Assembly (NCBI RefSeq): GCF_055900595.2 | Contig: NZ_CM148325.1 | Direction: 5' to 3' (one strand) | DNA length: 64,000 nt | Notes under the pieces: generated by a model | Databases searched by the model: none | What the model was told of the DNA's origin: nothing | The model's input: the letters and a program-made list of their open reading frames with translations, nothing else | Position numbers and translations under genes: made by a program | Shown: positions 54,595 through 63,450 of the stretch, piece after piece | How the letters are laid out: each line of letters opens with the position of its first letter | How positions within the stretch are numbered: position 1 is the stretch's first letter

Positions 54595-56160
54595 TTATGC
54601 TGTTTTGGTGCGAATCAGGTAGTCAAAAGCACTCAGAGAGGCTTTGGCACCTTCGCCAGTGGCGATGATGATCTGCTTGTACGGAACCGTTGTACAGTCA
54701 CCCGCAGCGAACACGCCTTTGACGTTGGTTTCGCATTTCGCATCAATGATAATCTCGCCCATGCGGTTACGTTCGACTGCGCCTTCGAGCCAGTTGGTGT
54801 TCGGCAGCAGACCAATCTGGACGAAAATACCGGCCAGTTCGATGTTGTGAATATCGCCGCTGACACGATCGCGATATTCCAGACCAACAACTTTGCTGCC
54901 GTCGCCTTTCACTTCCGTGGTTTGCGCATTCAGAATAATGTCGACGTTTTTCAGGCTGCGCAGTTTGTCCTGCAGAACCTGGTCGGCTTTCATTTCTGGC
55001 GCAAATTCCAGCAGAGTTACGTGCTCAACGATACCCGCCAGGTCGATTGCCGCTTCCACGCCGGAGTTACCGCCGCCGATGACCGCTACGCGTTTGCCTT
55101 TAAACAGCGGGCCGTCGCAGTGCGGGCAGTAGGTCACGCCTTTGGTGCGATATTGATCTTCGCCCGGAACGTTCATGTTACGCCATTTTGCACCGGTCGC
55201 CACGATAATACTGCGTGCTTTCAGTACCGCGCCAGAAGCTGTTTCAATCTGATGCAGGCCGCCTTCAACCGCTGCCGGGATCAGTTTGCTGGCGCTCTGG
55301 CTGTCGATCACATCAACGTCGTATTCATCAACGTGAACTTTCAGCGCACCTGCCAGCTTCTGCCCTTCGGTCTTCGGTACAGAAATGTAGTTTTCGATAT
55401 CAACGGTATCGAGGATCTGACCACCAAAACGTTCGCCCATCAGACCAGTACGAATACCTTTACGTGCGGAGTAAATTGCTGCCGCTGCACCCGCAGGGCC
55501 GGAACCAACGATTAATACGTCATAAGCATCACGCTTGTTCAGCTCTTCTGCCGCACGTTTTTCCGCGCCAGTATCGATTTTGGCGACGATTTCGGAAATA
55601 GTCATGCGGCCCTGACCAAACTCTTTCCCGTTTACGAACACTGCCGGAACGCCCATCACGTTGCGATCGGTGATTTCGTTCTGGAAGGTGCCGCCGTCAA
55701 TTGCCGTATGCTTGATGCGCGGGTTCAGTACGCTCATCAGGTTCAGCGCCTGCACCACGTCCGGGCAGTTGTGGCAAGAGAGCGAGTAATAGGTTTCGAA
55801 TTCAAAATCACCGTCAATATGGCGAATCTGCTCCAGCAGAGACTGCGCTTCTTTCGACGGATGACCACCGGTCCACAACAACGCCAGTACCAGCGAGGTG
55901 AACTCGTGGCCCAGCGGGGAACCTGCAAAACGTGGCCCCTGGTTGGAACCTGGGTTAGTGATCAGGAAAGACGGCTTACGCACCGGCAAGCTGTTATCTT
56001 CTTTAAAGGTGACTTTGTCTGACAGTTCTGCGATTTCAGCCAACAGTTCCTTGATTTCTGCCGATTTAGCGCTGTCATCCAGCGTGGCAATTAACTCAAC
56101 AGGCTTGGTCAATTTCTCAAGGTAAGCCTTGAGTTGAGTTTTCATATTTGTGTCGAGCAT
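54595..56160 (-). CDS. ahpF: Alkyl hydroperoxide reductase subunit F
   Basis: 521 aa from the ATG at 56160 ([17 protein letters not shown]); redox motifs CHNC and CPHCDG; FAD/NAD-binding Rossmann motifs. Confidence 0.95.
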
Positions 56161-56330
56161 GTTTATCTCCTGGGCTTTAAACATCATCATGCAAGCGGCC
56201 TCTGCGGCTACCTGGATGCAGCTTGCATCATGGTGCGGGGAAGAAAATCGGGTGCCGCAGCACCCGAAGAATTAGGTGAATTTCCGAAGTATTTCGCGCC
56301 GGAGTTGGTAGCGCGAAAGACGAAGGAAAT

Positions 56331-56894
56331 TTAGATTTTACCAACCAGGTCCAGAGACGGAGCCAGAGTTGCTTCACCTTCTTTCCATTTAGCCGGGCAA
56401 ACTTCACCTGGGTGAGAAGCTACGTACTGTGCTGCTTTGATTTTACGCAGCAGGTCAGACGCGTCACGGCCAATGCCTTCAGCGGTAACTTCGATTGCCT
56501 GGATGATACCCTGCGGGTCAACAACGAAGGTCGCACGGTCAGCCAGACCTTCATCTTCACGCATGTTGTCGAAGTTACGGGTCAGGGCGCCAGTCGGGTC
56601 GCCGATCATCGCATATTTGATTTTAGCGATAGTTTCAGAGCTGCTGTGCCATGCTTTGTGGGTGAAGTGAGTATCGGTAGATACTGCGTATACATCTACG
56701 CCCAGTTTCTGCAGTTCTTCGTAGTGGTCAGCAACGTCACCCAGTTCGGTCGGGCATACGAAAGTAAAGTCAGCCGGGTAGAAGAAGAAGACGCTCCAGC
56801 GGCCTTCGGTATCTTTTTCGGTGATTTCGATGAATTCGCCGTTTTTGAATGCCTGGTTTTTAAAAGGTTTAATTTTGGTGTTAATCAAGGACAT
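56331..56894 (-). CDS. ahpC: Alkyl hydroperoxide reductase subunit C (peroxiredoxin)
   Basis: 187 aa; peroxidatic Cys motif FTFVCPTEL; SD ggagga. Confidence 0.95.
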
Positions 56895-57266
56895 CTATAC
56901 TTCCTCCGTGTTTTCGATGAGATGTAAGGTAACCAATTTTTGCCGATTCGGCTAATGCGTTTCCATTATCAAATCGATAAGTTTTACCTTACAACCGTCG
57001 TAAGACAACTTTGTGAACTTTGCACCGCCAGTGGCGATAAAAAGTAAAATGGGCCCTCTTTCCAGGTGACCGTGTAATCTGAACTACCCTTTGGTATCTT
57101 CAGCGCCTGCCTGCAGGCTGTGGTGTTGCCCTTACAAATGCAACAACGACATGGATTACAACACCCTCATAAACAAAGGGCAATCACCTGATCTAAGCTC
57201 TTACCTATGACAGTGATAGGTTATGCCTTTTACTCCATTTTTGCACTGACTGAAAAGGACAAATTA
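56895..57266. promoter_or_regulatory. Divergent ahpC / dsbG control region (expected OxyR-regulated promoters)
   Basis: Intergenic region between divergently transcribed ahpC and dsbG; ahpCF and dsbG are established OxyR regulon members. No specific site is pinpointed from sequence. Confidence 0.4.
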
Positions 57267-58013
57267 ATGTTAAAAAAGATACTTTTACTGGCTCTGCTTC
57301 CTACAATCGCCTTTGCAGAGGAACTTCCTGCTCCGGTAAAAGCGATTGAAAAACAGGGCATTAAGATCATCAAAACGTTCGATGCCCCCGGCGGAATGAA
57401 AGGTTATCTCGGCAAGTATCAGGATATGGGCGTCACCATCTACCTGACTCCAGATGGTAAGCACGCTATCTCTGGTTACATGTACAACGAGAAAGGTGAA
57501 AACCTGAGTAACATGCTTATCGAAAAAGAAATTTATGCGCCAGCCGGACGCGAAATGTGGCAACGGATGGAACAATCGCACTGGCTCCTCGACGGTAAAA
57601 AAGACGCGCCAGTCATAGTCTACGTTTTCGCCGATCCGTTCTGCCCATATTGTAAACAGTTCTGGCAGCAGGCGCGCCCGTGGGTTGATTCTGGCAAAGT
57701 ACAGTTGAGAACATTGTTGGTTGGGGTTATCAAACCAGAAAGTCCGGCGACAGCCGCGGCAATTCTGGCCTCTAAAGATCCCGCAAAAACCTGGCAAGAA
57801 TATGAAGCCTCTGGCGGCAAACTTAAGCTAAATGTGCCTACAAACGTAAGTGCAGAGCAAATGAAAGTGTTAAGCGACAACGAGAAACTCATGGACGATC
57901 TGGGGGCAAATGTCACACCGGCTATCTATTACATGAGTAAGGAAAATACGCTGCAACAGGCCGTGGGGTTGCCCGATCAGAAAACGCTTAATATCATCAT
58001 GAGAAATAAATAG
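57267..58013 (+). CDS. dsbG: Periplasmic thiol:disulfide isomerase DsbG
   Basis: 248 aa from the ATG at 57267 ([17 protein letters not shown] signal peptide); CPYC active site; the ORF track extends 20 codons upstream. Confidence 0.9.
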
Positions 58014-58220
58014 AAGGTAATTCATGGGTGGTTGAAATACATTCTTGCTTTTCAACCATTCTAAAAACGCATGAATTGCTTCTTCCCCTCCTGACAACTG
58101 TGTTACTTTAGAAAAACTTAATCCAGAGTTAAGTAATAAAACATAACAAATATAAATAAAACAGTAGAATCATTGATTACAAGAATGATTTATGGAAAAG
58201 ATAATATAACGGAGTATGTT

Positions 58221-59123
58221 ATGGCTAATCTTTATGATTTAAAAAAATTCGACCTCAATTTACTGGTCATATTTGAGTGCATTTATCAACACCTCAGCAT
58301 TAGCAAAGCAGCAGAATCATTATATATAACGCCATCTGCCGTTAGTCAGTCGTTACAACGTTTACGCGCGCAATTTAATGACCCGTTATTCATCCGCTCA
58401 GGGAAAGGTATCGCGCCGACTACAACAGGGTTAAATCTGCATCACCATCTTGAGAAAAATCTCCGAGGCCTTGAACAAACGATCAATATCGTTAATAAGT
58501 CTGAGCTGAAGAAAAATTTTATTATCTACGGTCCTCAGCTTATTTCTTGTAGTAATAACAACATGCTAATCCGCTGTCTAAGACAAGATACTTCAATCGA
58601 TATAGAATGCCATGACATACTGCTTTCAGCTGAAAACGCTGAAGAATTGTTAGTTCAACGCAAAGCTGACCTGGCAATTACACTGCAACCAGTAATTAGC
58701 CGCTCTGTCATCTGCATGCCGGTACATACTATTCGCAATTCTCTTATATGTAGCAACAAACATCCTCGTATTACCGATACCAGTAACTATGAACAAATTA
58801 TCGCCGAAGAATTCACCTTGTTGATATCTAAATCAGCAGGGATTGACGAAATTCAAATGGACATAGATGAACGTTTTATGAACCGTAAAGTTTCATTTCG
58901 CAGTTCTTCTTTGTTGACGATAATTAATAGTATTTCTGTTACTGACTTATTGGGCATTGTGCCCACCGAACTGTACGATTTACATCGTGATTTTTTGAAG
59001 TTACAAGAGATAAAACTGGAACGACCACTTCCTACGGTTAAACTTTATATTTCCTATAACAAGGCTTCGTTGAACAACCTTGTCTTCTCACGATTCATAG
59101 ATCGTTTAAATGATAGCTTCTGA
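58221..59123 (+). CDS. ybdO: LysR-family transcriptional regulator
   Basis: 300 aa from the ATG at 58221; HTH LNLLVIFECIYQHLSISKAAESLYITPSAVSQSLQRLR; low-GC, AT-rich codon usage. Confidence 0.85.
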   Translation: MANLYDLKKFDLNLLVIFECIYQHLSISKAAESLYITPSAVSQSLQRLRAQFNDPLFIRSGKGIAPTTTGLNLHHHLEKNLRGLEQTINIVNKSELKKNFIIYGPQLISCSNNNMLIRCLRQDTSIDIECHDILLSAENAEELLVQRKADLAITLQPVISRSVICMPVHTIRNSLICSNKHPRITDTSNYEQIIAEEFTLLISKSAGIDEIQMDIDERFMNRKVSFRSSSLLTIINSISVTDLLGIVPTELYDLHRDFLKLQEIKLERPLPTVKLYISYNKASLNNLVFSRFIDRLNDSF

Positions 59124-59269
59124 TTTATTACCACGGATAAATGTTATATTACGCATCAATTGATTCATTGTGTGAATATAAAATAATGTGCTCTATCTTG
59201 CTTCGTTTACCCTATAATTAGCGGATTCATCTCACAAGTCACCCAGTAACGTTCAGAGAGCGTTTTCAG

Positions 59270-60490
59270 ATGTCTATTTATAAAATCCCTCTTCCGCTGA
59301 ATATTTTAGAAGCTGCACAGGAACGTATTACCTGGACACTTAACACATTGCCCCGTGTTTGCGTTTCTTTTTCGAGGGGTAAAGATTCCGGATTAATGCT
59401 GCATCTTACCGCCGAACTTGCCAGAAAATTGGGAAAAAAAATCTGCGTTTTGTTTATCGACTGGGAAGCACAGTTCTCTTGTACCATCGACTATGTACAG
59501 TCGTTACGCGAGTTGTATACCGACGTTATTGAAGAGTTTTACTGGGTAGCACTCCCACTCAAGACGCAAAATTCCCTTTCACAATACCAACCAGAATGGC
59601 AGTGCTGGGAATCTGATGTCGAATGGGTGCGTCAGCCCCCGCAAGAAGCGATAACCGATCCTGACTTTTTCTCCTTTTACCAGCCAGGCATGACCTTCGA
59701 ACAATTTGTACGTGAGTTTGCCGAATGGTTTTCACAAAAACGTCCGGCGGCGATGATGATCGGCATCCGTGCGGATGAGTCCTACAACCGTTTTGTCGCC
59801 ATCGCCAGTTTAAGTAAACAACGTTTTGCCGATGATAAGCCCTGGACCACAGCCGCACCAGGCGGTCACAGCTGGTACATTTACCCCATCTACGACTGGA
59901 AAGTAGCTGATATCTGGACCTGGTATGCTAATCATAAATCCCTATGTAACCCATTGTATAATATCATGTATCAGGCAGGCGTTCCCCTGCGTCATATGCG
60001 AATTTGCGAACCTTTTGGCCCGGAGCAACGGCAAGGATTATGGCTCTATCACGTTATCGAACCGGATCGCTGGGCTGCTATGTGCGCACGAGTTAGCGGG
60101 GTAAAAAGTGGCGGCATTTACGCCGGACATGACAATCATTTTTATGGTCATCGGAAAATCCTCAAACCAGAGCATTTAGACTGGCAAGAGTATGCATTAT
60201 TGCTGCTTGATAGCATGCCGGAGAAAACGGCTGAGCATTACCGCAACAAAATTGCCATTTACTTGCATTGGTATCAGAAAAAAGGTGTCGAGGTGCCACA
60301 GACCCAGCACGGGGACATTGGCGCGAAAGATATCCCCTCCTGGCGGCGAATTTGCAAGGTGTTACTGAATAACGATTACTGGTGTCGGGCATTATCATTT
60401 AGCCCAACCAAAGCGAAGAATTATCAGCGTTATAACGAACGGATAAAAGTAAAACGTCAGGAGTGGGGAATACTATGCAACAACAATTAA
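59270..60490 (+). CDS. ybdN: PAPS-reductase-like (PP-loop ATP pyrophosphatase superfamily) protein with C-terminal extension
   Basis: 406 aa; PP-loop-type motif SFSRGKDSG near the N-terminus. Confidence 0.85.
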   Translation: MSIYKIPLPLNILEAAQERITWTLNTLPRVCVSFSRGKDSGLMLHLTAELARKLGKKICVLFIDWEAQFSCTIDYVQSLRELYTDVIEEFYWVALPLKTQNSLSQYQPEWQCWESDVEWVRQPPQEAITDPDFFSFYQPGMTFEQFVREFAEWFSQKRPAAMMIGIRADESYNRFVAIASLSKQRFADDKPWTTAAPGGHSWYIYPIYDWKVADIWTWYANHKSLCNPLYNIMYQAGVPLRHMRICEPFGPEQRQGLWLYHVIEPDRWAAMCARVSGVKSGGIYAGHDNHFYGHRKILKPEHLDWQEYALLLLDSMPEKTAEHYRNKIAIYLHWYQKKGVEVPQTQHGDIGAKDIPSWRRICKVLLNNDYWCRALSFSPTKAKNYQRYNERIKVKRQEWGILCNNN

Positions 60491-61092
60491 CGCAGGATTT
60501 AACCCAATTTCTCGCCAGCTTGCCGGAAGACGATCGCATCAAAGCGATTAACGAAATCCGCCTGGCGATCCATCAGGTTAGCCCCTTTCGTGAAGAGCCA
60601 GTAGATTGTGTTCTGTGGGTTAAAAACAGCCAACTTATGCCAAATGATTACAACCCAAACAATGTGGCACCGCCCGAGAAAAAACTGTTACAAAAATCCA
60701 TTGAGATAGATGGTTTTACCCAACCTATTGTGGTCACGCACACAGATAAAAATGCTCTGGAAATCGTGGATGGCTTTCACCGTCATGAAATTGGTAAAGG
60801 CTCTAACACGTTAAAAATGCGATTAAAAGGATATTTACCGGTCACCTGTCTGGAAGGAACACGTAACGAACGCATCGCCGCGACTATTCGTCATAACCGC
60901 GCTCGTGGACGCCACCAAATTACAGCCATGTCAGAAATCGTTCGTGAACTCAGCCAGTTAGGATGGGACGACAATAAAATCGGCAAAGAGCTGGGTATGG
61001 ACAGCGACGAAGTGTTGCGCCTGAAACAAATTAACGGCCTGCAAGAGTTATTTGCTGACCGTCAATATTCCCGCGCCTGGACAGTAAAATAA
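60463..61092 (+). CDS. ybdM: ParB/Srx-like domain protein
   Basis: 209 aa; overlaps the ybdN 3' end by 28 nt; Arg-rich ParB-like region (ATIRHNRARGRHQ); start may instead be the internal ATG at 60475. Confidence 0.8.
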   Translation: MGNTMQQQLTQDLTQFLASLPEDDRIKAINEIRLAIHQVSPFREEPVDCVLWVKNSQLMPNDYNPNNVAPPEKKLLQKSIEIDGFTQPIVVTHTDKNALEIVDGFHRHEIGKGSNTLKMRLKGYLPVTCLEGTRNERIAATIRHNRARGRHQITAMSEIVRELSQLGWDDNKIGKELGMDSDEVLRLKQINGLQELFADRQYSRAWTVK

Positions 61093-62253
61093 TTACAGCT
61101 GGCGCAGGCGTTCAGCTGCCGCCAGCAACGTCGATTCCTTCTTGGCAAAACAGAGACGAATGAGCTTATGGGGGAAGGGATCGGCGCAAAATACCGACAG
61201 CGGGATCGCCGCCACGCCATGCTCCCGCGTCAGCCACTGGCAAAACTCAACGTCATCCAGCGAAGAAACCGCGCTGTAATCCACCAGCAAAAAGTAAGTG
61301 CCTTCGCACGGTAAAATCTCCAGCCGACTCTCACTTAAGGCGTTCACCAGAATATCGCGCTTCTGGCGATAAAAGTCCGGTAACGCAAGGTAGTGTTCAG
61401 GTTCTGCTCGCAGCATATCGGCAAGGGCCAGCTGCGCCGGGGTATTCACCGAAAAAGTCAGATACTGATGCACTTTGCGGATCTCGGCGCTGATGGGCGC
61501 AGGCGCAACGCAATAGCCCACTTTCCAGCCGGTCATATGATAGGTCTTGCCAAACGATGACACCGCCACCGCCCGCTCACGCAGTTGCGGATGCGCCAGC
61601 ACACTGGCATGGCCCTGCTGTGAAAAGTTGATATGCTCGTAAACTTCATCGCTAATGACAAAAATCTCGTGCCCGGCAATTGCCTGCCACAAAGCGGAAA
61701 AATCAGTCTGCTGCCAGACAGTAGCACTGGGGTTATGCGGGGTGTTAAGGATCACCAGTCGGGTGCGCTCGCTTAACAATGCGGCAAATTCCTGCCAGTC
61801 CACGCGAAAATGCGGTGGTTGCAGTGCAATACGTTTCACTATTCCACCCGCAAGCGTGATGGCGGGGGCGTAACTGTCATAGCTGGGATCAAAGCAAATC
61901 ACTTCATCGCCATTGCGCACCAATGCAGTAATCGCTGCGTACAGCGCTTCCGTCGCCCCTGCTGTTACGGTGATATCGCTGTCGGCATCTGGTTGATAGC
62001 CATACAGCCGTTCCGTTTTCTGAACAATCGCCTCGCGCAAGGCCTGCACGCCGGTCATGGGTGCGTATTGGTTTGCTCCGTGGGCAACGTGGTACGCCAG
62101 CCGTTCCTGCAAATAGCGCGGACCATCAAAATCAGGAAAGCCTTGCGACAGGTTAATCGCCTGGTGTTGCTGCGCCAGTGCGCTCATCTGGGTGAAAATA
62201 GTGGTGCCAAGTTGTGGAAGTTTGCTTTGTGGAATCAGAGGGTTATTTGTCAT
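61093..62253 (-). CDS. ybdL: Methionine-oxo-acid aminotransferase (PLP-dependent, class I)
   Basis: 386 aa from the ATG at 62253 (MTNNPLIPQSKLPQLG); PLP-Lys context SSFGKTYHMTGWKVG. Confidence 0.9.
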   Translation of the reverse strand: MTNNPLIPQSKLPQLGTTIFTQMSALAQQHQAINLSQGFPDFDGPRYLQERLAYHVAHGANQYAPMTGVQALREAIVQKTERLYGYQPDADSDITVTAGATEALYAAITALVRNGDEVICFDPSYDSYAPAITLAGGIVKRIALQPPHFRVDWQEFAALLSERTRLVILNTPHNPSATVWQQTDFSALWQAIAGHEIFVISDEVYEHINFSQQGHASVLAHPQLRERAVAVSSFGKTYHMTGWKVGYCVAPAPISAEIRKVHQYLTFSVNTPAQLALADMLRAEPEHYLALPDFYRQKRDILVNALSESRLEILPCEGTYFLLVDYSAVSSLDDVEFCQWLTREHGVAAIPLSVFCADPFPHKLIRLCFAKKESTLLAAAERLRQL

Positions 62254-62361
62254 TTTTATTGTGCCTGACAAAGTTGCGTGTTGAAGCCACTATAACACGA
62301 TGCTAGTATTTGGCAATCAAGACGTTTAGATGTCTAAATAAAACAATAAGGACAACACAAC

Positions 62362-63450
62362 ATGCCTCACAATCCTATCCGCGTCGTCGTTGGCCCTGCT
62401 AACTACTTTTCTCATCCCGGCAGTCTCAATCACCTGCATGATTTTTTCACTGATGAACAACTTTCTCGCGCAGTGTGGATCTACGGTGAACGTGCACTTG
62501 CCGCGGCGCAAACCAAACTTCCATCGGCGTTTGAACTGCCAGGAGCAAAGCATATTTTGTTTCGCGGTCATTGCAGTGAAAGCAATGTGCAACAACTGGC
62601 GGCTGAGTCCGGTGACGATCGCAGCGTGGTGATTGGCGTCGGCGGCGGCGCACTGCTCGACACCGCGAAAGCCCTCGCCCGCCGTCTCGGTCTGCCGTTT
62701 GTTGCCGTTCCAACGATTGCCGCTACCTGCGCTGCCTGGACACCACTCTCTGTCTGGTACAACGATGCCGGACAGGCGCTACATTATGAGATTTTTGACG
62801 ACGCCAATTTTATGGTGCTGGTGGAACCGGAGATAATCCTCAATGCGCCGCAAGAATATCTGCTGGCAGGAATCGGTGACACGCTGGCGAAATGGTATGA
62901 AGCGGTGGTGCTGGCTCCTCAGCCAGAAACGCTGCCGCTAACCGTGCGGCTGGGAATCAATAATGCGCAGGTCATTCGCGACGCCTTGTTAAACAGTAGC
63001 GAACAGGCGCTTGCCGATCAGCAAAATCAGCAGTTAACGCAATCATTTTGCGATGTGGTCGATGCGATTATCGCCGGAGGCGGAATGGTCGGTGGTCTGG
63101 GCGATCGTTTTACGCGTGTGGCGGCGGCCCATGCCGTGCATAACGGTCTGACCGTTTTGCCGCAAACCGAGAAGTTTCTCCACGGCACCAAAGTCGCCTA
63201 CGGAATTCTGGTGCAAAGCGCCTTGCTGGGTCAGGATGATGTGCTGGCGCAATTAACCGGGGCGCATCAGCGTTTTCATCTGCCGACCACGCTGGCGGAG
63301 CTGGAAGTGGATATCAATAATCAGGCAGAGATCGACAAAGTGATTGCGCACACCTTGCGTCCGGCGGAATCCATTCATTACCTGCCGGTCACGCTGACAC
63401 CAGATACGTTGCGTGCAGCGTTCGAAAAAGTGGAATCGTTTAAAGTCTGA
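62362..63450 (+). CDS. ybdH: Iron-containing alcohol dehydrogenase / glycerol dehydrogenase-family oxidoreductase (hydroxycarboxylate dehydrogenase)
   Basis: 362 aa; NAD-binding motif GVGGGALLDTAKA. Confidence 0.85.
   Translation: MPHNPIRVVVGPANYFSHPGSLNHLHDFFTDEQLSRAVWIYGERALAAAQTKLPSAFELPGAKHILFRGHCSESNVQQLAAESGDDRSVVIGVGGGALLDTAKALARRLGLPFVAVPTIAATCAAWTPLSVWYNDAGQALHYEIFDDANFMVLVEPEIILNAPQEYLLAGIGDTLAKWYEAVVLAPQPETLPLTVRLGINNAQVIRDALLNSSEQALADQQNQQLTQSFCDVVDAIIAGGGMVGGLGDRFTRVAAAHAVHNGLTVLPQTEKFLHGTKVAYGILVQSALLGQDDVLAQLTGAHQRFHLPTTLAELEVDINNQAEIDKVIAHTLRPAESIHYLPVTLTPDTLRAAFEKVESFKV

Follow-up and report, generated by a model that had tools for sequence, protein, structure and literature searches.

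What does the Escherichia ybdN-ybdM pair do? A conserved PP-loop and ParB-like gene pair with a possible DNA-directed function

The citR-ybdN-ybdM locus of Escherichia raises the question of what chemistry is carried out by two adjacent genes encoding, respectively, a protein with a PP-loop ATP-pyrophosphatase-like domain (YbdN) and a ParB/Srx-like protein (YbdM). The locus considered here lies in a stretch of 64,000 nucleotides from contig NZ_CM148325.1 of assembly GCF_055900595.2 (hereafter the window), the last 9 kb of which are the Escherichia ahpF-ahpC / dsbG / citR(ybdO)-ybdN-ybdM / ybdL / hcxA(ybdH) region. It is the already annotated E. coli citR-ybdN-ybdM unit and not a new discovery, and because it is already known and annotated its novelty is low; it is, rather, a well-framed open question on the chemistry of a known pair. 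An earlier note on this DNA, made from the sequence alone, held that the biochemical function is undefined, and literature searches on ybdN/ybdM, IbrA/IbrB, DUF3440 and phosphoadenosine phosphosulfate (PAPS) reductase with ParB indeed turned up no paper defining it. The answer that we favour, tentatively and with somewhat less than even confidence, is that ybdNM is a phage-derived, DNA-directed adenylation or modification module that is kept silent by the LysR-type regulator CitR and by H-NS. The features of the two genes, all on the plus strand of the window, are as follows.

59270 to 60490, plus strand: ybdN, 406 amino acids, with a predicted PP-loop ATP-pyrophosphatase domain (PAPS-reductase family) and a C-terminal DUF3440.
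59357 to 59971, plus strand: PAPS_reduct domain inside ybdN, residues 30-234.
59372 to 59389, plus strand: PP-loop inside ybdN, residues 35-40, reading S-R-G-K-D-S where the family has S-G-G-K-D-S.
59978 to 60418, plus strand: DUF3440, residues 237-383, mostly helical, with no solved structural relative.
60463 to 60490, plus strand: 28-nt overlap of ybdN and ybdM, consistent with translational coupling.
60463 to 61092, plus strand: ybdM, 209 amino acids, IbrB-like, with an N-terminal helical hairpin, a ParB/Srx-fold domain and a C-terminal helix-turn-helix (HTH).
60601 to 60903, plus strand: ParB/Srx-fold domain, residues ~47-147, with invariant NDYNPN, DG(F)HR and RHNRARG motifs.
60919 to 61050, plus strand: three-helix HTH DNA-binding domain inside ybdM, residues ~153-196.

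The two genes are inherited, moved and selected as one unit, and their pairing is obligate. A scan of IMG/VR with two YbdM peptide motifs, taken from 11 sequences, matched more than 598 viral contigs; the viral neighbourhood counts given here refer to the best 80 of these, in which the YbdM relative is 48-60% identical to E. coli YbdM. A full-length YbdN relative adjoins the YbdM relative on the same strand in 79 of the 80 loci, the exception being a truncation at a contig end. Either gene can come first: among the 68 viral loci that could be ordered after filtering for non-overlapping open reading frames, YbdN leads in 28 and YbdM in 40, and in 23 of the 28 YbdN-first loci the spacing runs from -29 (overlap) to +38 nt. 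The pair is constant, and no third neighbour is conserved, since no other gene family recurs in more than 8 of the 80; what surrounds the pair are phage genes for replication, recombination and packaging. The earlier note had proposed, from the 28-nt overlap, that the genes are tightly coupled; with adjacency in 79 of 80 viral loci and in every context examined, the coupling is far stronger than the overlap alone suggests.

The same adjacency is found in three of three diverse metagenome or genome contigs that were opened, in annotated phages of Streptococcus, Pseudoalteromonas, Arthrobacter, Bacillus and Mycobacterium, and in another enterobacterial chromosome, where the pair forms a two-gene islet lacking a LysR gene. 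In Listeria, lmo1309/lmo1310 is listed in the literature as a core pair. Plasmids carrying a YbdN relative number 854, the largest groups being from Klebsiella (323), Escherichia (204), Ralstonia (129) and Shigella (123), and a ParB-like gene adjoins the YbdN relative in every annotated row among the matches listed, including the two that were opened; on the Klebsiella virulence plasmid pKP118 (L014) the pair lies between the fec and iroBCDN genes.

In E. coli, the chromosomal locus is present in 5420 of 5426 complete genomes, with at least 80% of the 3.1-kb locus covered in 5114. A second, accessory pair, presumably of the ibrAB type and with ~57% protein identity to YbdN, occurs in 2145 of the 5426 (~40%). 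The two accessory copies that were opened both lie in genomic islands: one in strain TW08637 (L097, 11869-12138), adjoining a PerC-family regulator, aerobactin iucABCD genes and insertion sequence (IS) elements, the other beside a TonB-dependent receptor gene and ~8 kb from a tRNA-Asn gene. Within E. coli both chromosomal genes are under purifying selection, the ratio of nonsynonymous to synonymous substitution (dN/dS) being 0.05-0.07 for ybdN and 0.066 for ybdM, the same as for hcxA. Natural inactivation is also seen, by a frameshift of ybdM in NZ_LR882973.1 (L002, 5365-5993) and by an IS1-associated deletion in strain G8 (L003, 5248-6295) that has removed citR, ybdN and the 5' part of ybdM.

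YbdN is assigned, from profile matches and a structural model, as a PP-loop ATP pyrophosphatase of the PAPS-reductase fold followed by a helical DUF3440 domain. It matches Pfam PAPS_reduct (PF01507) over residues 30-234 (3e-13) and, C-terminal to this, DUF3440 (PF11922) over residues 237-344 (2.9e-23) and 352-383 (2.1e-6), and it is matched over its full length by PHROG 2302 (4e-75). A 35-sequence profile of the YbdN family, compared with the PDB, finds FAD synthase, CysD, PAPS and adenosine phosphosulfate (APS) reductases, and LarE. For the AlphaFold2 model (predicted local distance difference test, pLDDT, 82) the closest solved folds are those of APS/PAPS reductases and CysD, with matches also to TilS (11.6) and to the Fe-S tRNA thiolases TtuA and NcsA (9-10); identity to solved enzymes is 14-20%, and a sequence search of solved structures gives nothing close to either YbdN or YbdM. 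All credible fold matches are PP-loop-fold proteins with 141-198 residues aligned, about the size of the N-terminal domain. The fold-search output gives alignment lengths without naming the aligned residues, and the DUF3440 half is judged to have no credible structural match because the alignments span just about the length of the N-terminal domain. The catalytic core (S35, G37, K38, D39, S40, D64, E66, R167, E170 and S171) is strictly kept in phage, plasmid and chromosomal copies, and four further near-invariant cysteines (112, 246, 362 and 372) are kept in 48-49 of 50 family members.

Membership of the characterised families is, by contrast, ruled out by the curated models. As a CysH/PAPS reductase, YbdN scores 35 bits against a cut-off of 154 (NF002537), 34.9 against 254.2 (TIGR02057) and 24.5 against 165.1 (TIGR00434); as CysD it scores 16-22 bits against cut-offs of 195-413; as DndC it scores 19.6 bits against 290.4 (TIGR03183). 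Beyond the Pfam domain YbdN does not align with CysH because DUF3440 follows instead. YbdN shares 14-20% identity with CysH, CysD and eukaryotic FMN adenylyltransferase, far below curated cut-offs, and differs from them in its extra 170-residue DUF3440, its obligate DNA-binding partner and its genomic context.

For YbdM the best fold matches are KorB (10.8), sulfiredoxin (10.1), pNOB8 ParB-N (9.8) and PadC (9.8), followed by SbnI (9.1), Spo0J (9.0) and a free serine kinase (8.7), while the C-terminal three helices match the DNA-binding domains of KorB (8.7), ParB (7.5) and VirB (5.8), and also LuxR/sigma-4 type HTH domains. In YbdM a helical hairpin at the N terminus is therefore followed by a ParB/Srx domain and then by an HTH. 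Its ParB_N-type fold carries the G-x-x-R nucleotide-binding motif (in DGFHR) as well as the N-x-x-R motif (in RHNRAR), so that the positions of the ParB-type CTPase clamp motifs are retained in altered form; nucleotide binding by YbdM is predicted from these motifs. PHROG 2302 and PHROG 2159 match the YbdN-YbdM pair (4e-75 and 2e-69, respectively), and YbdM is also matched by PHROG 498, 'DNA methyltransferase' (9e-10), with a marginal PADLOC match to MTase_II (E 0.0024). The fold assignments of the earlier note for both proteins, including the long C-terminal extension of YbdN, have therefore survived profile and structure searches.

A role for YbdM as a partition ParB is ruled out: TIGR00180 gives 15.1 bits against 58.45, there is no ParA gene nearby, and the protein ends after the HTH. 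Compared with the KorB, VirB, ParB and Noc clamps, YbdM has DGFHR in place of GERR, an extra N-terminal helical hairpin, no ParA partner and no C-terminal dimerisation domain. The sulfiredoxin motif is GGCHR. Sulfiredoxin-like repair of AhpC by YbdM is rejected in that YbdM has Phe at the position of the catalytic Cys (DGFHR), has an HTH and is found with YbdN in many unrelated contexts; because of this Phe, the nearness of the pair to ahpCF and dsbG is regarded as a coincidence. The HTH and the absence of a catalytic cysteine at the sulfiredoxin position also set YbdM apart from the ParB/Srx-fold enzymes sulfiredoxin, SerK and SbnI. In E. coli, YbdM has been called 'completely uncharacterized'; its level rises 29-fold with a CTX-M-15 plasmid, its overexpression costs 10% in growth rate, and deletion of ybdM is nearly neutral (PMC8764527).

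The coordinates given for the three open reading frames in the earlier note stand. The 28-nt overlap holds with the GTG at 60463 as the ybdM start, which is also the start used by RefSeq and is preferred because B2-type and A-type E. coli alleles read ATG there; an alternative in-frame ATG at 60475 would give an overlap with ybdN of 16 nt. The span 58221-61095 proposed for the locus does contain the genes, but it ends 3 nt past the ybdM stop, within the stop codon of the convergent ybdL.

Silencing of the pair is the best documented part of its biology, and involves the following features upstream of ybdN.

58014 to 58220, plus strand: dsbG-citR intergenic region, GC content 0.295, the probable citR promoter and operator.
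58221 to 59123, plus strand: citR (ybdO), LysR-type repressor of ybdNM, GC 0.380, from RefSeq annotation and CitR equivalog NF047710.
59124 to 59269, plus strand: citR-ybdN intergenic region, GC 0.349, the presumed ybdNM promoter.

The product of citR matches the equivalog NF047710 with 455.4 bits against a cut-off of 400, over residues 1-294 of 295, and the gene adjoins ybdNM; its ATG start is at 58221, the longest open reading frame of the same frame opening at a TTG at 58173. In published work a CitR peak was found by ChIP-exo (chromatin immunoprecipitation with exonuclease treatment) upstream of citR-ybdNM, and deletion of citR raised ybdN by log2 5.5 and ybdM by log2 2.5, showing that CitR represses ybdNM; the deletion also induced the cys regulon (cysDNC, cysJIH, cysPUWA) and flagellar genes and lowered lrhA (PMC9068703). 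The same study reports citR to be under H-NS control (PMC9068703), which is in keeping with the hint of H-NS silencing that the earlier note drew from the AT-richness of the locus. GC content is 0.501 for the window, 0.465 for ybdN, 0.459 for ybdM and 0.549 for ybdL, so the AT-richness is strong in citR and the spacers but mild in ybdN and ybdM.

Little can be read from the spacers themselves. The citR-ybdN spacer is 70-87% identical between E. coli allele classes and has a single sigma-70-like site (TTGATT-16-AATAAT, 59160-59187), which is not above chance; promoter and terminator scans of 57950-61300, including hexamers in the dsbG-citR spacer, gave counts no higher than in shuffled sequence, and the regulatory region has only two short AT-rich inverted-repeat pairs, which are not interpretable. 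An FNR box for ybdN is predicted by EcoCyc, as cited in PMC9068703; in the citR-ybdN spacer of the present allele there is none (TTGAT-N4-ATCAA, up to 2 mismatches).

The citR gene is, moreover, strongly dimorphic in E. coli. Over 58026-59524, including both spacers, the type found in the window and in B2 (ST131) strains differs from the A-type (K-12-like) by 14-30% in nucleotides and, for the protein, by 11%, with synonymous divergence (dS) saturated at ~2.2; ybdN and ybdM differ by merely 2-5% between B2 and A types. The pattern resembles an old allelic replacement, or else a balanced polymorphism, that has affected the regulator alone.

Among known systems, the nearest in architecture is IbrA/IbrB, from the ibrAB island of E. 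coli ECOR-9, where a PAPS_reduct-DUF3440 gene is likewise followed by an overlapping gene for an IbrB-like ParB/HTH protein. This pair reportedly activates expression of prophage eib genes, for immunoglobulin-binding proteins. The relationship drawn in the earlier note is borne out by RefSeq, in which ybdM carries the name 'IbrB-like domain-containing protein' and a YbdN orthologue is called 'IbrA family prophage gene co-activator'; the likeness is one of architecture and names, and ybdNM differs in being a near-core chromosomal copy with its own LysR repressor.

A broader likeness is to the Dnd, Ssp and type 4 BREX systems, in which a ParB/Srx protein with a D-G-x-H/Q-R type motif is combined with a PP-loop ATP pyrophosphatase of the PAPS-reductase family acting on DNA. 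DndC and SspD are both reported as ATP pyrophosphatases of this family, and SspB/SspD is a comparable pairing of a ParB-superfamily with a PAPS-reductase-family protein. DndB is a ParB-superfamily protein and DndC a PP-loop ATP pyrophosphatase, while BrxP of type 4 BREX is a divergent PAPS reductase (PMC10853773, PMC12839542). YbdN resembles the DndC/SspD/BrxP-type enzymes in its conserved cysteines; it has DUF3440 instead of the DndC and BrxP extensions, and YbdM has an HTH and no HNH or DUF1524 nuclease. PADLOC scores YbdN at 18 bits for DndC and 16 bits for BrxP (E ~3e-4 to 6e-4, partial coverage), and neither in the window nor in the viral (80 loci), plasmid and chromosomal surroundings that were examined are DndA, DndD, DndE, SspA, SspC, BREX core or restriction genes linked to the pair. 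The placing of YbdN in the DndC/SspD class, as the earlier note had it, thus gives way to one of resemblance, not membership, as judged from the profile scores and the lack of conserved Dnd or Ssp partners nearby; its broader idea of nucleic-acid modification can still reasonably be inferred. A further parallel is with phage DNA methyltransferases carrying a ParB domain, in which a YbdM-type domain serves as the DNA-targeting module of a DNA-modifying enzyme, with the difference that the enzyme partner of YbdM is a separate PP-loop protein and not a methylase dependent on S-adenosylmethionine.

The reading of ybdNM as a DNA-directed module can be stated as a mechanism. Derived from a phage or mobile element and complete in itself, the module of YbdN and YbdM would act on DNA. 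YbdM would bind DNA through its C-terminal HTH and bring YbdN to it, and YbdN would adenylate the nucleic acid, either on a phosphate (in the backbone or at an end) or on a base. The AMP would then be displaced by a nucleophile, a candidate being sulfur carried on the four conserved cysteines with the housekeeping IscS as a possible donor. The product would be a covalent mark, which in phages would protect or tag replicating DNA and in islands and plasmids would change how horizontally acquired genes are expressed, as is reported for IbrA/IbrB; the adjacent CitR, together with H-NS, would keep the chromosomal module almost silent. Both DNA as the substrate and adenylation followed by substitution as the chemistry are what we infer. 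Among the solved members of the family, CysD and FMN adenylyltransferase (FAD synthase) make a bond between AMP and phosphate or sulfate, and APS/PAPS reductase breaks one. The rise of the cys regulon on derepression of ybdNM would, in our view, be consistent with a drain on sulfur.

Relatives of the pair show several elaborations. In 38 YbdM-first viral loci (L017, L034, L045, L067 and 34 others) there is a segment of ~130 amino acids, termed module X, either encoded by a separate gene between the YbdM-like and YbdN-like genes (e.g. between 6615 and 6993 of L034) or fused to the C terminus of the YbdM relative. The module is marked by the motif W-E-C ... E-W-x-x-S-C-E-H-Y-L-T-N ... N-R-I-A-W-L-G-Q-A-A, matches no entry of PHROGs, Pfam, NCBIfam or the PDB, and does not occur in the window. 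Five YbdN-first viral loci (L015, L030, L056, L083 and L085) have between the two genes an open reading frame that looks GNAT-like by eye, with no PHROG or NCBIfam match, and in an actinobacterial locus (L009, 6558-7004) the gene at this position has a weak match to Pfam Acetyltransf_1. Two YbdM relatives (P0135 and P0139) contain inteins placed exactly in the invariant DG(Y/F)-TQP motif, and three (P0216, P0219 and P0251) have Cys-rich inserts in the same motif; YbdM-type domains also occur in tandem (P0121, P0152 and P0156) and, in P0268, fused to a DNA methyltransferase with a DPPW motif. Several phages have a DNA methyltransferase gene next to the pair. No convincing YbdN-YbdM fusion was found among 150 YbdM-family representatives.

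The phage setting of the pair, the methyltransferases fused to YbdM relatives or encoded nearby, the inteins and the added modules are more in line with DNA modification than with a plain transcription factor. The HTH of YbdM and its matches to DNA-methyltransferase profiles likewise point to DNA. A more specific proposal, which we consider possible if rather doubtful, is that of a minimal two-protein DNA-modification system of undescribed chemistry, in which a ParB/Srx-HTH guide directs a PP-loop/DUF3440 adenylating enzyme to lay down, for example, a thiolation mark on the backbone or on bases. If this were true, the mark would let phages escape restriction by the host, on islands and plasmids it would act as an epigenetic switch turning on silenced genes of horizontal origin, and the variants with a GNAT-like protein or module X would make more elaborate marks.

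Several considerations weigh against modification of DNA by the pair. No experiment shows DNA or RNA modification by YbdN/YbdM or IbrA/IbrB, and the sole phenotype reported for a homologous pair, the activation of prophage eib genes by IbrA/IbrB, is said to be transcriptional. YbdN scores far under the DndC, BrxP and CysH cut-offs, the four cysteines are not kept in the Streptococcus and Pseudoalteromonas phage homologues, and the 80 viral loci show no linkage of the pair to a cysteine desulfurase, an SMC-like ATPase or a restriction partner. The induction of the cys regulon might also follow from the loss of CitR directly, or in some unrelated way. In several actinobacteriophages the cluster occupies the small-terminase position, which allows a role in packaging.

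The alternative that survives best, although we hold it to be unlikely, is that the pair is purely regulatory and leaves DNA chemically unchanged, YbdM/IbrB being a KorB/VirB-like DNA-binding protein that counters H-NS silencing or activates the promoters of horizontally acquired genes, and YbdN/IbrA a non-modifying cofactor that senses a ligand or makes a small nucleotide signal. The naming of homologous pairs as 'co-activators of prophage gene expression IbrA/IbrB', their reported phenotype and the structural matches of YbdM to KorB and VirB are in keeping with this, as are the second E. coli copy and the plasmid copies in AT-rich virulence islands (with iro, iuc, fec or TonB receptor genes and, once, a PerC-family regulator) and the shift of many genes, including lrhA, flagellar genes and the cys regulon, when CitR is lost. 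The strict conservation of the PP-loop core across phage, plasmid and chromosomal copies argues, however, for catalysis; the pair is common in phages that show no sign of lysogeny, where its neighbours serve replication and packaging; inteins, fusions to methyltransferases and additional enzyme-like modules would be unusual for a plain transcription factor; and YbdM, at 209 residues, lacks the C-terminal dimerisation domain that the ParB, KorB and VirB clamps use.

The remaining alternatives, namely packaging, toxin-antitoxin or defence, and metabolism, are less likely than either the modification or the regulatory reading. For a DNA-packaging or genome-processing accessory of phages, which we think improbable, the ParB-like protein would recognise or nick the packaging site, replacing or accompanying the small terminase, the PP-loop enzyme would process DNA ends, and the bacterial copies would be domesticated or decaying remnants. 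The large terminase gene is directly downstream in four viral loci; Mycobacterium phage Gadjet has the order ParB, PAPS reductase, ParB, large terminase, and a metagenomic contig (L010) has two ParB genes, PAPS reductase, the YbdM relative and the large terminase, while in Arthrobacter phage Laroye the ParB, PAPS reductase and ParB genes are separated from the large terminase downstream by a methyltransferase and an HTH gene. However, these terminase-adjacent examples belong to a more distant subfamily (23-27% identical), the neighbours in most of the 80 viral loci are replication or recombination genes and not the terminase, the pair comes after the lysis genes in Streptococcus phage CHPC1230, and it is conserved under purifying selection in chromosomes and plasmids, where nothing is packaged.

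A toxin-antitoxin or stand-alone anti-phage defence system is more improbable still. TASmania lists Listeria lmo1309/lmo1310 as a toxin-antitoxin candidate through guilt by association, YbdM overexpression carries the growth cost given above, one actinobacterial copy (L009) lies beside a type I-E CRISPR-Cas locus, and a preprint counts genes for PAPS reductase and ParBc among the candidate effectors of PANGU-like defences. On the other side, deletion of ybdM is nearly neutral, phage genomes themselves carry the pair in abundance, the contexts examined show no enrichment for defence islands, and a search of PADLOC-DB v2 finds no known defence system for YbdN and YbdM, giving only marginal, unrelated matches to DndC, BrxP and methyltransferases (E ~1e-3 to 1e-4).

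The weakest proposal, that YbdN is a second PAPS/APS reductase or an ATP sulfurylase (as in the 'cysH' auxiliary metabolic gene label) to which YbdM is incidental, has in its favour the RefSeq name 'phosphoadenosine phosphosulfate reductase', the nearest solved folds, the placing of the DUF3440 clade within the CysH phylogeny of a virome study and the rise of the cys regulon on ybdNM derepression, but it can hardly be reconciled with scores of 24-35 bits against 154-254 for CysH/PAPS-reductase models and of 16-22 against 195-413 for CysD, 14-20% identity to solved enzymes, an obligate ParB/HTH partner and a DUF3440 with no counterpart in sulfate assimilation, the absence of linked genes for thioredoxin, sulfite reductase or CysN, and the cysH, cysD and cysN genes that E. 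coli already has.

The copy of YbdN encoded in the window has a peculiarity of its own in the PP-loop. The SFSRGKDSG that the earlier note took as the PP-loop motif is a mutated form (Gly36Arg): the family consensus is SFSGGKDS, in which S35, G37, K38, D39 and S40 are invariant and G36 near-invariant, Gly36 being present in 108 of 108 cluster representatives where the motif was found and also in other E. coli alleles. The position concerned is

59375 to 59377, plus strand: ybdN codon 36, AGG (Arg) here and GGG (Gly) in the nearest complete genome, a single-base difference at 59375.

That genome, NZ_CP098223.1, differs from the window at 3 positions in 8901 nt, base 59375 being one of them. The 5426 complete RefSeq E. 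coli genomes contain no copy of the exact 61-mer with Arg36; the exact Arg36 protein occurs on 191 contigs of a large protein collection, and the change is therefore a real allele of a sublineage and not an error. Gly36Arg probably weakens ATP binding, and YbdN of this strain may be catalytically impaired, possibly representing a loss-of-function allele in the sublineage.

The Escherichia lineage from which the window comes is rare: in the regions tested (54600-57000 and 61300-63450), identity of at least 99% is reached by just 10-18 of the 5426 complete genomes; identity to typical E. coli is ~93% for ybdL and hcxA and ~98% for ahpCF. The ahpC-ahpF spacer (56191-56330) varies in length, being 140 nt here, ~170 nt in ST131 and ~244 nt in an A-type strain, and these differences give rise to low-identity windows in a three-way allele alignment.

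The ybdN and ybdM genes belong to the conserved genes of E. coli with no assigned function, and the pair that they form is spread through nearly every E. coli, virulence plasmids of Klebsiella, E. coli and Shigella, the Listeria core genome and hundreds of phage contigs. Its phage copies are counted in viromics papers as 'cysH' auxiliary genes of sulfur metabolism, a label that the present data suggest is wrong. If the pair modifies DNA, or if it counters silencing, it would be a widespread new player in phage-host conflict and in the control of virulence islands.

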